Part shown: positions 21,001 to 30,000 of the stretch, piece after piece
Position numbering within the stretch: the stretch's first letter is position 1
How the letters are laid out: each line of letters starts with the position of its first letter
NCBI GenBank assembly: GCA_012728835.1
Contig: JAAYEJ010000019.1
Span: forward strand, 16,677 to 80,676
DNA from: Candidatus Brocadiaceae bacterium
GTDB taxonomy: Bacteria; Planctomycetota; Brocadiia; SM23-32
Direction of reading: 5' to 3'
Length of the DNA: 64,000 bases
Made by a program: the position numbers

Positions 21001-24000
21001 GCCGGCCGGTGACGGCCGCCGGCTTCCGCGATCAGAGCATGGTCAACGCCGATTCGCCCGTGTCCATCCCCGCCGACGCGCTGGGACTGGCCGCAGAGAA
21101 GACCCGCATCGCCAATCCGCCCCGACGCCGCAGCAACACCCCCTGGGTCATCGCCATCTTCGTCGTCGGCGTCGTCTTCGCGGTGGGCGTCCTGGTCTAT
21201 GTGTTGACCCGATAACAGGCCGCCGCGCCTCGGGCCTCAGTCGAACCGCAGCCCCGCGTAGCCCACCACGTAGTCGCCGCCCCCGAGCGGAGAGTCCGCA
21301 CTGGTGGCCCGCCCCAGCAACTCGCCCCGGGTGCCCCCCCGTGCGGCAACGCCGGACATCATCGCCGCCGCCGGCAGGACGCCGCACATCGTGATCCCCT
21401 CCAGCCGGCAGACGCTGTAGAGCCCGTCAGGGTCCAGCGCCACCATCCGCTCGATCGCCACCGCGTCGTTCCGGCGCACGACCTCGCGCGCGTGCCGCCC
21501 GTGCTCGTGAGACATGTCGCTGCTGGCAACGATAAGCGCGTCGTCCTCGCCCAGCTCCGCCAACACGCCCGCCGCGTACGCACCCACCTCCTTGAGCGCC
21601 GGAAGCCGCGCCGACACCGTCACGCAGACGACGGCGATCCGCACACCGGGGTTGTGATACTGGAGGAACGGCAGCACGACCTCCCCGGAATGCTCCGGGA
21701 TGTGCGGCTCGTCGGCCGGGATGATCCCGGGATGCCGGGCCAGGGCCTCGGTGAGCGCCTCGTGGATCGCCACGCTGCCCAGCGGCGTCTCCCATCCGCC
21801 GCCCGTCCACAGGGCGAACGCAGGCTGCGAGAAGGCATGGCTCGGCGTCAGCAGCAGCACGGTGTCCGGCACCCGCACCTGCGCAAACAGCCTGCCCATC
21901 ACCGCGCCGCTGAACGTGTAGCCGGCGTGCGGAGACAGCACGCCCAGCGCCGGGGAGGGCCGCGCGCCTTCCGGCGCGGCGCTCACCCCCTCGATCGCCG
22001 AGCGCAGTGCCTCGGGCCGGCCCGGGTAGAACTGACCTGCGACGGCCGGCTTCCTGGTCATCTCCCTGCCTCCTGCACGCGGACGATGCCGTCAGGCCCC
22101 GCTCACCGCCGCCGACCGCGCCGCAAGCTCACCGGCGGGCCCAGCACCTCGGACCAGACGATCGCCCGCTTCAGATCGCCCCCCTTCGCCGCAAGCAACG
22201 GAGCGAGACCCCCGCGGGCGGCCTTCTGCGGCACGGCGGCCGGGGCCGGCGCCGGCGCCGCCTGGGCCTCGCGCAAAGGCGCCTTGCGCCGGGCCGCCTT
22301 CCTCCTGCGCGCCGTCGGCGGTGTCGGCACCGGCGCAGCCACCCGCCCCGGAGGGGCGGCCCCCACCGGCGGGGCGGCAGGCACCGGGTCCCAGAAGGAC
22401 GGCACGGCAGCCGGCGCACCGGGCGGTCGCGGCATCGGCCGCACGGCCGCTTCCCGCCCGCCGCCGGCCGCTGCCCGCCGGGTGGCGGCCTCCAGGGAGC
22501 GGACTAAGTCCCGGACCTGGACCGGCCGTGTCTCGTGTCCTTCCTCGTCTTCCCGGGCCGCTGCCCGCCGGCCCTCCGGGGCCTGCGACGCCCGGATCGC
22601 GCGCGTGACGACCACGACCACGACGATGATCAACCAGATGATCTCCTCTGCACCCACGCACCGCACCTCCTTCCGACACTCCGAGCGTCAGACGAACCGG
22701 CCCACATCGACGTCGGCGCAGTAGTTCATCAGCAGAATCGTGTCCTCCACCCCCCGACACAGATACGTCAGCATGTCCGCTTTGACGCGGCCGGTCACGC
22801 CTTTGAGCAGCTTGGCCCAGCCGGCCATCGCCGTCGGGAGGCCCTGCGGCAGCAACAGCGCGGCGCACAGCCCGCGCAGCAGGTACGGGGCGTCGGGCTG
22901 GTCGCGCGTGCCGGCCAACGGCATCGCCGCGCTCCGGACGCGGGCCAGCCCCAGGTAGCATCCGCTCAGGTAGCGCTCCTTCGGGCTTCCATGGCGCAGC
23001 AGGCGCGTCAGTTGCGCGGCAGCCTCTTCCTCGGCCTCCATCGCACGCAGCGCCAGGGAGGCACAGACCTGCTCCGGGTCGGCCCCTTCGGCAGGCTCCA
23101 TGACGGTCATCCCCTCCAGCGCATGGCCGCCCCCTCGCAGCGCCAGCGCCAGGCAGACGGGCGCCACGCCTTCCAGCGGCCGGGCCCGGAGGTGCGCCAG
23201 GATCCCGTGGGCAACCTGCGGATGCCGGACGGCGGCCATGATCTGCTGCGTCAGTTCCACCCGGAAGTCGATGCGTGCGGCGGCGAGCGCCCCGGCCGCC
23301 AGCGGCACGGCGTCCGGCCCCTCCCACCGCATCAGGGGCAGCGACGCCAGCCCGACCGGCTCGCAGAACTCGCGGTCCGTCGCGTGCTTCCGCGCCATGG
23401 TCCTGAGCGCATCGGCCGGCGCGCGGTCGTCCGGGGCCAGGCTGGCCTTCACCGCAAGCGCCGTCAGCCGCACCCAGGCGTCGGCATCATCGGCTGCGGC
23501 GGCCAGTTCCTGTGCGCACGCGCCCGGTTCGGCGTCCTCACGCGCCCACAGAAGGTTGATCCACGCCCGCCTGCGCAGCCGGCCGATGCGCGTGGCATAG
23601 CGGGCGCCCCGTCCGCGCGGCCCCCACTGGAGCTTCGGGCCGGCGGCGAGGGCGGCCGTCCAGCGCTCGGCGTGCGTGAGCCAATCCTCCTGGCCGATCA
23701 CGCGCAGGGCCACGGCCGCATAGGCCGCCGCGTTCAGGGCGGCCGTCAGATCGCGCGTGAGCCCCCGCAGGAGCGCGCGCGCGGTATCCCGGTCCAGCGG
23801 AGCGCCGGTGTCGGCGGCACGGGCCACGGCGGCCGCCTGCTCGGGCGAGAGCGCCTGGCCCTCGGCCCGGCGTTCGGCCAGACCGGCCCCGGCGCCGGGC
23901 CGGATCCGGAAGCACCCCGCCTCGTCGTCCCACAGGAGCGCGTGGGCGTCGCGCGCAACCTGACCTCGCCAGGCAAGCACCTCGTCGAGCTGCGAGACGA

Positions 24001-27000: not shown

Positions 27001-30000
27001 GCCGGACAATGCCGCTGGGACGCAGCGCGCTCATCGCCTCCCCTTCCAGGCCGACCAGGTCCTCGCCGATCGTCGTCGACGCGCGGAAGCCGCGCTGGTC
27101 GCCCTTCAGGGCCATGAACCGGCCCACGAAGCCCTTCCACAGCGCAAAGAACAGCGGCACCCAGAGCACGGCGACGGCAACCAGCACGGCGCCCGCCGTC
27201 GTATGGCCGCCGGCAAAGGCCAGCACCACGCTGCCCGTCACCGCCGCCAGCCCCAGCAGACCCAGCACCGCGCCGGGAATGAACAACTCGATGACCATCG
27301 CCACCAGTCCGGCCGCGAACACGAAGATGATGACGTCCAGTTCGACCATCGCCGCCTCCCAGGAGTGTGGCGCGATCCCGCGCGCTCAGGCGCCCTCGCA
27401 CCGCTCCACAACGACCCTCGGCCCCTGCACGGCCAGGATGCGCACGCGCGCGCCTTTCGGCACGAACTCGCCCTCCGTGACGACGTCCAGCAGCCTCTCG
27501 CCGAATTCCGCCCGGCCCGCCGGATGGAGCGGCGTGAGCGCCACGCCCACCTCGCCCGTCATTCCGGCCAGGCCCGGCGTATGCACCTCGCCGATATCGC
27601 CCACGTGGGCGGCCGCCAGGGTGTCCACGTGCGTGATGCGCCGGAAGAGCGGCACCGACGGCAGGAACCGCGCCAGGACGGCCATCAGCAGGCCCGACAG
27701 GGCAAAGGCCCCCAGCACCGTCACGATGCTCACCTCGAGGGTCCGCACCTGCTCGGCGGTCGTCGGCACTGTGAAGCCCTGGAAGGCCAGCACAAGGCTG
27801 ACGAAGACGCACGCGATGCCGGCGATGCCGGCCACGCCGAAGCCCGGGATGACGAAGACCTCCAGGAGCAGCAGCACCATCCCGATGCCGAACAGCACGA
27901 TCTCCAGCATGTGCACGTATGCCTGCGTCCACTTCACGATGAAGAACACCCCGAAGCAGATGAGCGCCAGCAGCCCGGGCAGGCCCACACCCGGCTGGCT
28001 CAGCTCCATGTAGAGCAGGATCATCCCTGCAACGAGCAGGAGGGGGCTGAAGGTGTCCAGCAGGGCCAGGAGCCGCTCCGACGCCGTCAGGTGCAGTTCG
28101 ATCACACGGGCGGGGTCCAGCTCCAGGAGCTCGTACAGCTCCTCGGCCCCCGAGACGGCGGCGCGGGCGAACCCGAACTCGATCGCCTGCTCGCTGCCCA
28201 CTGTCAGGAGTTCCCCGGCGTTCACCACGATGCGCTGGTCGACGATCTTCGCCAGCCGTTCCTCGTCCCACAGATCCAGCTCGGTGCCCTCGACGTACCG
28301 GTAGGCCCCCTCGGGCTCGTCCTCCATCTGCAGGCGGAGGACCTCGATCTCCTTGGTCACCATAGACCGCACGAGGGCCAGGGGGTAGCCGCGCGCCCGC
28401 GCGTACTTGAGCATGCTGTCGCGCACGACGGTCTGCTGCTTCTCGCCCAGGATCTCGCCGGTCGGCCCGACCGGGGCCACGTCGCCGATGCTCCCCAGGC
28501 GGGCGTCCATGTAGATCGCCTGACACGCCAGGGCCACCATGGTGCCGCCGCTGAACGCGTCGTTGTTCACGTAGGCGACGATGCGCAGGTCGTCCCTGGT
28601 GAAGACGAAGTCGCCCAGGGCGCGGGAGGCGTCCAGTGTGCCGCCGGGGGTGTTCAGCTCCAGGATGACCGTCCCGGCGCCGAGCCGTCGGGCACGTTCG
28701 ATCTGGCGCATCACCGCCTTGGCCCGGGCGGAGTTGATGACGCCCTCGATCTTGATGACACACGCCTCGACGGGCTCCTGCGCCTCCTGAGCCCGCGCAG
28801 GAACGCCCCCGGACGACAGGACGCAGACGGCGACCCCGGCCAGCAGGAGCATGGCCGTTTTGTGCCGACCGTCTCGCCTTCCTGGCCTCACCGAGCGCCC
28901 CCCTGCCAGACGGAATGCCTGCGCCGCCGCGTCCTGCGGGCGATTATACAGTGCGCCAGGCGCCCGTGCCAGGCCCGGGACGAGCCCTACAGATGGACGG
29001 ACCGGGCGGCATCGACTTCGGGCAGGGCCACGAGCCGGTCGATGCACGCCGGCGTGCAGGGAGTGTCGACGTTCAGAGCCAGCAGGGTCTTGCCCCCGAC
29101 GTCGTGCCGCCCGACGGTCATCCGGGCGATGTTGACGCCGCCGGCGCCCAGGATGGCGCCGACCTTGCCGATAACGCCCGGCACGTCGTTGCCGTGGAGG
29201 ATGAGCACGTCGCCGACGGGCGCCAGCTCGACCATGAACCCGTCGATGCGCACGATGCGCGCCAGTTCGGGGGCGAAGACCGTGCCGGCCGCCTCGAACG
29301 TTCCCGCATCGGTGACCAGGGAGATCTCGACAAGGTTGGCGAACCCGGCCTCCAGCCCCACCGTCGCGCTGCCGGTGATCCGGACACGCCGCTCGGCCGC
29401 CAGATGCGGGGCGCTGACGATGTTGACGTCGTCGCCCAGACTGCCCTGCATGACGCCCATGGCGCCGTAGCTGACGATGGGATCGGTGCTGCCCTCGGCG
29501 ATCTCGCCGCGGCAGGAGACCTCGAGGCGCTCCGGGCGGCCCGTGCTGATCTGGGCGACGAGCTTGCCGATCCGCACGGCCAGGTCGCAGTAGGGCCGCA
29601 GGACCTTCATCTCCTCCGGCGCAACCGTGCCGATGTTGACGGCGTTGCGGTAGTGGCGGCGCTGCAGGGCGTCGACCATCTGCTCGGCGGCCTGCACGGC
29701 CACGGCGAGCTGGGCCGCATGCGTGGAGGCGCCCAGATGCGGGGTCGCCAGGACCTTGTCGTTCTGCACGAACTCGAAGCTCTCGGGAGGCTCGGTCGGG
29801 TAGACGTCCACCGCCAGCCCGCCGAGGCGGCCGTCGTTCAGGGCCGCCAGAACCGTCGCCTGGTCCAGCACGGACCCGCGCGCGCAGTTGATGATGCAGG
29901 CGCCCGGCTTCATCATCGCGACCTGCTCGGCACCGATCATCCCGCGCGTCTTGTCGTTCTCCGGGACGTGCAGGGTCACGTAGTCGCTCTCCCGAAGCAG

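Follow-up and report, generated by a model that had tools for sequence, protein, structure and literature searches.

Flotillin-like proteins of the SPFH5 family (FloA) are encoded next to NfeD proteins in operons that are known mainly from Firmicutes, Chlorobi, and Planctomycetes, and a 'gene of unknown function' has been mentioned beside the Thermus operon (Hinderhofer et al., 2009, PMC2636767). One operon of this type, yqeZ-floA-yqfB, is documented in Bacillus subtilis (PMC8144471). Here we describe a floA locus on a 64,000-nucleotide stretch of Candidatus Brocadiaceae bacterium (GenBank assembly GCA_012728835.1, contig JAAYEJ010000019.1, positions 16,677 to 80,676 of the forward strand), which we call the window in its full length and which has a G+C content of ~71%. 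The locus contains, in order, a long nfeD, a short nfeD, floA, a gene for a large HEAT-repeat protein (the HEAT gene), a gene for a small Pro/Ala-rich membrane protein (the tether gene), and a gene of the MEMO1 family (memo). The FloA-NfeD operon is the known backbone of this arrangement; the apparent insertion of the HEAT gene and the tether family appear to be new. On balance, we favor the reading that an operon for a FloA (SPFH5) flotillin complex has been extended by lineage-specific genes, with the HEAT protein joining the complex as an adaptor or client.

The B. subtilis operon, yqeZ-floA(yqfA)-yqfB of the sigma-W regulon, likewise has a gene for a long, NfeD1b-like protein with a ClpP motif, then floA, and then a small 3' gene (PMC2636767, PMC8144471). 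Relative to this operon, the locus in the window adds the short nfeD, the HEAT gene between floA and the small gene, and the terminal memo. In Staphylococcus aureus, FloA and an OB-fold NfeD are likewise encoded together; they act as an ATP-independent stabilizer of unfolded membrane proteins, and bind each other via the NfeD OB-fold and the coiled-coil region of FloA, co-oligomerizing in membrane microdomains (PMC11222466). Unlike the window locus, the S. aureus system is described as having a single NfeD (26 kDa) and lacking a dedicated partner of the solenoid or tether kind, and our literature search found no report of an operon-encoded client or adaptor for it. A preliminary description of the window had taken a single NfeD partner as the known arrangement for flotillins, which holds for the model Firmicutes. 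A more distant parallel is the Pyrococcus horikoshii pair PH1511 (stomatin) and PH1510, in which a long NfeD with a ClpP-fold Ser-Lys protease domain shares an operon with an SPFH protein; its catalytic Ser aligns with a Ser of the window protein. However, the P. horikoshii partner is a stomatin (SPFH1b) and not FloA, the similarity is marginal (E = 4e-3), and neither a tether nor a HEAT protein is described.

SPFH proteins build rings and domes on membranes that enclose or organize their clients (PMC12624060), and assemblies of this kind include HflK/C-FtsH, QmcA-YbbJ, prohibitin, erlin, and flotillin-1/2. By analogy, such a cage is a likely working model for FloA, with the difference that the window encodes no membrane protease as the partner but a soluble alpha-solenoid. 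Other SPFH cages have FtsH as their classical client. An FtsH gene (FtsH_ext, AAA, and Peptidase_M41 domains) is present in the window at 57021-59015 (+), ~30 kb from the floA operon and unlinked to it. The HEAT protein shares its all-helical solenoid fold with the PP2A A subunit, karyopherin-beta, CAND1, and NblB/CpcE; it differs from these solenoid adaptors in that TM-scores are 0.15-0.27 and its C-terminal 440 residues lack relatives outside its own family. Finally, the memo product shares the Memo model with the AmmeMemoRadiSam system (AMMECR1 homolog, Memo, radical SAM protein), whereas neither an AMMECR1 nor a radical-SAM gene was found among ~50 candidate genes scanned with Pfam across the 64-kb window. 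Within the window, then, memo does appear without its usual AmmeMemo-A and radical-SAM partners, as had been noted.

Gene order and predicted transcription of the floA locus

The minus strand carries six open reading frames (ORFs) in tandem, running from 28852 to 21237. The long nfeD (NfeD1b type) occupies 27386-28891 (-), with the ATG at 28852 as an alternative start, and is followed by the short nfeD (26891-27349, -), whose product combines membrane helices with an OB-fold (PF01957). Next come floA (25724-26758, -), for a flotillin-like SPFH protein of the SPFH5/YqfA family (PF12127, NF010186), and the HEAT gene (22688-25690, -), for an all-alpha solenoid of 1000 residues (HEAT_2). The tether gene (22103-22657, -) encodes a small single-pass protein without a Pfam or NCBIfam family, and the last same-strand gene is memo (21237-22061, -), a MEMO1/AmmeMemoRadiSam-B member (PF01875, TIGR04336). 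ORF mapping and profile searches thus recovered the six-gene series of the preliminary description, and its gaps of 22-132 nt agree essentially with our measurements (36, 132, 33, 21, and 41 nt in gene order, or 21-132 nt, with 33 nt between floA and the HEAT gene). The upstream neighbor on the same strand is serA; on the other side, a Ser/Thr kinase gene is convergent to memo, with 21 nt from stop to stop. The HEAT and tether genes share one reading frame.

Two start codons deserve comment. An in-frame GTG upstream of long nfeD, at 28891, gives MRPGRRDGRHKTAMLLLAG...ARA|QE, a canonical signal peptide with a positively charged n-region. Because a classical signal peptide ending in ARA|QE results, this GTG is the more likely start than the ATG at 28852. 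For the tether gene, the GTG at 22657 is more likely than 22666, since a GGAGG stands 8 nt upstream of it.

All comparisons below draw on the sequence and gene order of metagenome-assembled genomes (MAGs) and metagenomes. We collected 20 related loci (designated, like the other loci, by L numbers), 14 of them from GTDB species representatives labeled Candidatus Brocadiia, Brocadiaceae, or Planctomycetota. A non-clade sample came from a metagenome scan for FloA and consists of the best 80 of at least 600 pattern matches, so that frequencies in it are estimates; these 80 loci encode FloA proteins with 60-83% identity and range in G+C from 32 to 70%.

A consensus scan detected a sigma-70-type promoter-like site (CTGGCA-18 nt-TATAAT) at 28943-28972 (-), upstream of long nfeD. 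Across loci, we counted sites with a perfect TATAAT and at least 4/6 matches in the -35 hexamer. Such a site precedes long nfeD in 14 of the 16 evaluable clade loci, usually with TTGnCA as the -35 element and a spacer of 16-18 nt (mostly 17); it was missing from L010, L015, and L017 in one or other of the scans. At the G+C contents of the related genomes (51-73%), this recurrence provides strong evidence for a dedicated, conserved promoter predicted at the start of the block. The entire window has only two such sites on its minus strand, that of serA and that of nfeD. No such site occurs between long nfeD and memo in any of the 20 loci, and the consensus scan gave no convincing terminator within the window block. 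The gene order itself is unlikely to be due to chance, as 20 related loci, each from a different species-level MAG, share it. Overall, the block is very probably one operon, as had been proposed, and the pattern is consistent with a single transcript through to memo. In particular, the same scan found no strong terminator or promoter that would split floA from the HEAT gene.

Two further observations concern non-coding elements around these genes. The serA promoter in the window is a perfect TTGACA-18-TATAAT (30616-30645, -), and its equivalent, TTGACA-17-TATAAT ~50 nt before serA, is kept in 13 related loci. Given the scarcity of consensus sites in such high-G+C genomes, these sites may mark strongly expressed housekeeping genes. 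We also considered an internal regulatory RNA in the spacer between short nfeD and floA. This candidate was unsupported: alignment of these spacers (24-308 nt) showed conservation of the ribosome-binding site alone, and Rfam searches over the window returned two tRNAs and nothing else.

Conservation of the gene order within and beyond the clade

In all 19 related loci that could be assessed, floA is directly followed by the HEAT gene, which in turn is directly followed by the tether gene, again in 19 of 19; the median spacers at these two junctions are ~60 nt and ~45 nt, respectively. This trio survives fully different flanks in L003, L101, L102, and L103. Since both junctions are kept despite changed flanks, floA-HEAT-tether is the most stable adjacency of the region. 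The upstream serA (13 related loci) and the convergent kinase gene (11) are less constant. Both nfeD genes stand directly 5' of floA in most related loci, the exceptions being L015, L011, L004, and L016. L015, whose 53% G+C is the lowest among clade members that have both nfeD genes, has ~3.8 kb between short nfeD and floA (2995-6870) with two unrelated ORFs of 481 and 259 residues, and its floA-HEAT-tether-hydrolase-memo run is intact. In L011, no nfeD was found within 4.5 kb upstream, and L004 and L016 carry an extra truncated floA-like ORF between the nfeD genes and floA. Comparing the floA-HEAT adjacency across related genomes had been put forward as a check on the initial proposal that the HEAT protein is a candidate FloA partner. 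Because the linkage is present in every related locus, even with differing flanks, the HEAT protein emerges as a reasonable candidate.

Outside the clade the picture is different. None of the 63 non-clade floA loci with enough downstream sequence was found to carry a HEAT-family gene, and the tether gene is directly 3' of floA in 42 of the 63, which span several phyla. A distant planctomycete, L018 (Planctomycetes bacterium GCA_003452155.1), and its metagenome twin L019 have long nfeD, short nfeD, floA, and tether without a HEAT gene, with floA and tether overlapping by 8 nt, on contigs that end 150-450 nt past the tether gene. Direct floA-tether adjacency is thus seen in non-clade loci, L018/L019, and L100, but not in the window or its clade, where the HEAT gene intervenes. 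Taken together, the lack of HEAT genes outside the clade, the position of the tether gene next to floA, and the L018/L019 overlap indicate that one Planctomycetota lineage (Candidatus Brocadiia MAGs) acquired the HEAT gene as an insertion specific to it, between floA and tether. The ancestral unit, present in several phyla, is nfeD(long)-[nfeD(short)]-floA-tether. The GC3 of the HEAT gene (0.90) matches that of its neighbors, so it does not look like a recent foreign arrival.

Conserved linkage could also arise if the HEAT gene were a passenger in a constitutively transcribed operon, kept by descent and encoding a protein with no interaction with FloA, NfeD, or tether. Several points favor a passenger and weigh against an adaptor or client role. 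The linkage is confined to one clade in which neighboring non-operon genes are syntenic too; with the synteny of serA and the kinase gene largely kept, the conservation may partly reflect shared ancestry. The C-terminal tails of FloA show no feature specific to HEAT-bearing loci, and the matches of the solenoid fold are generic. Some floA-HEAT spacers are long (~330 nt in L001 and ~170-180 nt in L010, L012, and L017), leaving room for weak or non-consensus promoters; these escape the scan used and may therefore exist within the block. In addition, both co-transcription and protein contacts are deduced here from assembled sequence and gene order. Nevertheless, a passenger gene fits poorly with an adjacency that is the most stable of the region, on both sides, although HEAT proteins are only 31-49% identical, and that outlives the loss of serA, nfeD (L011, L015), memo, or the kinase gene. 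It also fits poorly with a position that splits a pair adjacent or overlapping across phyla. No examined locus has the HEAT gene away from floA, and all family members found are full length (~960-1005 residues) or fragments of that architecture. On this evidence, we regard a passenger role as unlikely.

An equally doubtful alternative, close to the preliminary description, is that all six genes, including memo, form a dedicated membrane-microdomain assembly module in which the NfeD pairing is the oddity and Memo works with FloA and the HEAT protein. The identity of the Memo protein is clear (PF01875, E = 5.9e-49; TIGR04336, 230 bits over the full length, cutoff 26). Its gene is on the same strand as tether, after a gap of 41 nt with a GGAGG, and in 15 of 18 related loci memo comes after the block; among them are L103 and L015, which are deeply diverged, and loci from which the kinase flank has been lost. 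In no locus is memo preceded by a consensus promoter, and L103 has one only past memo. However, L001 and L003 lack memo, and in L102, where an oxidoreductase gene comes next, it is not adjacent. It directly follows tether in five loci (L002, L005, L016, L103, and L013, in the last past an 88-residue ORF), whereas in ten it comes after a gene for an alpha/beta-hydrolase. The 88-residue ORF is conserved before memo in L008 and L013. The hydrolase (Hydrolase_4 type, 320-370 residues, N-terminal membrane segment) is missing from the window; its gene follows tether in L001, L004, L006-L009, L011, L012, L014, L015, and L017 (e.g. L006, 11541-12542), and L001 keeps this order though it has no memo.

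Beyond the clade, memo was found at none of the 80 floA loci, and we know of no MEMO-family chemistry that connects Memo to SPFH proteins. Nor is the NfeD pairing exceptional. Upstream sequence sufficed for a count at 50 non-clade loci, of which 25 have a long nfeD together with a second OB-fold gene, 11 a long nfeD only, 11 a short one only, and 3 neither; as detection relied on single-sequence searches, the tandem precedes floA in at least 25 of the 50. The statement that both NfeD classes in one locus are uncommon was therefore not supported, and two NfeD partners per flotillin are not exceptional in this FloA subfamily. We conclude that memo is probably co-transcribed here and is an accessory gene, whose product may or may not work with FloA.

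Properties of the encoded proteins

The assignment of FloA is secure, with 514 bits to PF12127 (cutoff 34; E = 1.7e-154; profile positions 3-313 of 314) and 521 bits to the equivalog NF010186 (cutoff 393). The protein is 77-93% identical to the FloA proteins of related loci. Two nfeD genes lie upstream on the same strand, in keeping with an operon that supplies NfeD partners, and this likewise applies to 16 of 18 related loci. A sequence search of the PDB returned no solved FloA structure. Several loci also contain a truncated FloA-like ORF, covering the N-terminal 120-240 residues, just 5' of the full floA (L004, 6420-6848; L016, 6103-6813; L028, 3573-3926; L068, 97-459). These ORFs, which occur inside and outside the HEAT clade and are 52-67% identical to FloA as measured in L004 and L016, could be decaying duplicates or short FloA paralogs.

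The long NfeD matches PF25145 (NfeD1b_N, 95 bits, cutoff 40), PF24961 (NfeD_membrane, 86 bits, cutoff 26), and the OB-fold family PF01957 (48 bits, cutoff 29). Its architecture comprises a signal peptide, an exported serine-protease domain of the ClpP/SppA fold, a multi-pass membrane domain, and a cytoplasmic OB-fold. The catalytic dyad of PH1510 is Ser97/Lys138. In the weak match (E = 4e-3) to P. horikoshii 1510-N (2deo/3bpp), the Ser of AFSGG pairs with the catalytic Ser of AASAG, and the alignment ends before the Lys. Ser101, Lys138, the TPGG motif, and G123 (numbered from the ATG at 28852) are invariant in 53 long-NfeD N-terminal domains. Given the invariance of Ser101 and Lys138 and the alignment of Ser101 with the 1510-N catalytic Ser, the protease is predicted to be probably active. 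The Sec-type signal peptide would place this domain outside the cytoplasm. The short NfeD matches PF01957 (55 bits, cutoff 29.1) and falls below the cutoff for PF24961 (22 bits against 26); it has no protease domain. Its OB-fold resembles that of 3wwv, a 'stomatin operon partner protein' (E = 9e-3), and the protein cross-matches residues ~304-488 of the long NfeD with 28-35% identity. The short NfeD thus appears to be a paralog of the C-terminal third of the long one.

The HEAT protein has ~30 full-length orthologs with 40-64% identity. Its N-terminal half matches HEAT_2/PBS-lyase-type repeats, with PF13646 (HEAT_2) scoring 126 bits in five stretches that all fall within this half. An AlphaFold2 model built from a 27-sequence alignment is a wholly helical solenoid with three short low-confidence loops (mean pLDDT 88.6). 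Foldseek searches of the PDB with this model returned karyopherin-beta, CAND1, and PP2A-A at the low TM-scores given above; on the strength of the model, this likeness is that of a generic solenoid fold and provides no functional clue. Neither a signal peptide, a membrane helix, nor an enzymatic domain was found, and the protein is predicted to be cytoplasmic and soluble. The NblB equivalog NF045915 scored 32 bits over ~44 residues against a cutoff of 300, and the PADLOC models recovered no defense system, their sole match being generic and incomplete, to a HEAT-ARM profile (115 of its 1972 positions).

The C-terminal 440 residues have no Pfam match. A search of 1.84 billion representative sequences found 39 relatives, all with the same ~1000-residue architecture or fragments of it, and this region is a lineage-restricted orphan solenoid. 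Across the family, invariant residues concentrate in the array (~109-523) and at the extreme C-terminus, where an invariant G-R-F is followed by V (VGRFV tail; L replaces V in L007). One low-confidence loop of the model (residues 325-370) carries a near-invariant W-E-A-G-(N)-I-G (W349, E350, A351, G352). Both the WEAG loop motif and the GRF tail (residues 990-1000) look like docking elements and not like structural repeats.

The tether protein is Pro/Ala-rich and 184-187 residues long. In its AlphaFold2 model, a transmembrane helix (residues 3-25, pLDDT > 90) and a second helix (45-64) are followed by ~90 low-confidence residues, consistent with a disordered Pro/Ala/Arg-rich linker, and by a helix (160-172) that bears a conserved motif. 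In the window protein this C-terminal motif reads LKRAIVWSEVLGPPVSLRR. Family members were recognized by the pattern A-[IVF]-[IVL]-x-x-E-[IV]-[LF]-x-x-P near the C-terminus, and 54 sequences gave the consensus L-[RKQ]-[RKQ]-A-[IVF]-[IVL]-x-S-E-[IV]-L-G-[PK]-P-x-[AS]-L-R, which can be shortened to L-x-x-A-[IV]-[IV]-x-S-E-I-L-G-P-P-x-x-L-R. Non-clade members have 119-253 residues, an N-terminal hydrophobic helix, a low-complexity linker, and the motif within the last 40 residues. With its transmembrane helix at 3-25 and ...AIVWSEVLGPPVSLRR near its end, the window protein clearly belongs, by sequence, to this floA-linked family. The preliminary description was right about the Pro/Ala-rich membrane ORF; the ORF is, however, more than filler, being a member of a widespread family.

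The pattern occurs in 61 of 2,723 ORFs (at least 100 residues, both strands, all loci). As these loci should hold roughly 61 tether genes, we take the background of the motif to be near zero, going by the total count rather than ORF by ORF. No Pfam or NCBIfam model covers the family, and every database name that we met was 'hypothetical protein'. Word-indexed protein searches, which are insensitive for this protein, gave 9 and 19 matches, and the breadth of the family was taken instead from ORFs beside floA. A literature search covering yqfB, SPFH5, and HEAT with flotillin returned no paper that characterizes the tether or reports a HEAT partner. The residues before the transmembrane helix are acidic and those after it include Arg and Lys, and by the positive-inside rule this charge pattern puts the long arm, and with it the motif, on the cytoplasmic side.

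In the Firmicute Peptoniphilus, the gene order is rpsU-yqeY-nfeD1b-floA-tether-phoH-ybeY-dgkA-cdd-era-recO. We take the B. subtilis floA neighborhood to be similar, with yqfB after floA. By gene order the tether would occupy the yqfB position, an equivalence of position only.

A proposed FloA assembly and its context

The observations above can be combined in the following model. From what is known of the family, FloA would oligomerize on the cytoplasmic face of the membrane, and the OB-folds of both NfeD proteins would dock on the oligomer. The long NfeD would add an exported Ser/Lys protease domain that seems catalytically intact. The tether would sit in the membrane, in or beside the FloA patch, with its N-terminus outside, and its C-terminal helix, carried on a long flexible linker, would dock to an equally conserved partner, most economically FloA or an NfeD OB-fold. 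The soluble HEAT solenoid could then be recruited as a peptide-binding adaptor or scaffold for lineage-specific cargo, or be a dedicated client itself. The position of its gene between floA and tether, and its co-inheritance with them without exception, suggest that it joins the assembly; whether it does so by associating physically and directly with the FloA complex is, in our judgment, an even bet. Memo, together with the alpha/beta-hydrolase in most relatives, would be a co-transcribed accessory.

Two other roles for the tether can be envisaged. It may be an overlooked, near-universal fourth subunit that couples FloA and NfeD1b to clients by way of its flexible arm and C-terminal motif, with the lineage-specific solenoid docking on this assembly, but we consider this improbable. 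More improbable still is that the NfeD1b protease acts on the tether, or is regulated by it, as 1510-N cleaves the hydrophobic C-terminal segment of its stomatin partner; the HEAT protein, with its invariant C-terminal tail, could possibly be a second such substrate or regulator. In favor of this, the tether gene does co-occur with long nfeD (29 of 31 loci, compared with 3 of 13 without; Fisher p = 6e-6, without correction for phylogeny), both Ser101 and Lys138 are invariant, and in the tether motif prolines come after a hydrophobic stretch, presumably loosely like the stomatin cleavage region of PDB 3viv. Against it, the co-occurrence may just track phylogeny, the membrane is predicted to separate the protease domain (outside) from the tether motif (cytoplasm), and no export signal is present in the HEAT protein.

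The window contains two additional features of interest away from the floA locus. A 798-residue protein encoded at 3788-6184 (-) combines Ser/Thr kinase and MscS mechanosensitive-channel domains with a C-terminal FHA domain, and this unusual fusion suggests a channel wired to phospho-signaling. Elsewhere, what is left of a tyrosine recombinase, a degenerate C-terminus (42413-43306, -; Phage_integrase, 30 bits), lies right next to a tRNA gene (42336-42408, +). The segment 42336-45400, which also holds a 373-residue ORF without a Pfam match and an HU/IHF-like ORF of 116 residues, has a G+C of 0.65-0.67 compared with ~0.72 around it and is probably the remnant of an integrated element.

The partners of bacterial flotillins and the way they select clients are debated, and the partners known come mostly from pull-downs in Bacillus and Staphylococcus. 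The gene order described here offers two genetically hard-wired candidates, a widespread tether with a sharply conserved, putative C-terminal docking motif and a 110-kDa solenoid encoded strictly between floA and the tether gene. Recognition of the tether family and its motif is a general by-product of this analysis, and its place in the yqfB slot makes it testable at once in model organisms. The lineage-specific solenoid, in turn, would be a tractable bait for the interface between flotillins and their clients or adaptors. If the improbable reading above, of a dedicated solenoid docked on a FloA-NfeD1b-tether assembly, is true, this would be the first bacterial flotillin whose own adaptor or coat-like partner is genetically hard-wired, loosely paralleling the solenoid adaptors of eukaryotic membrane trafficking.

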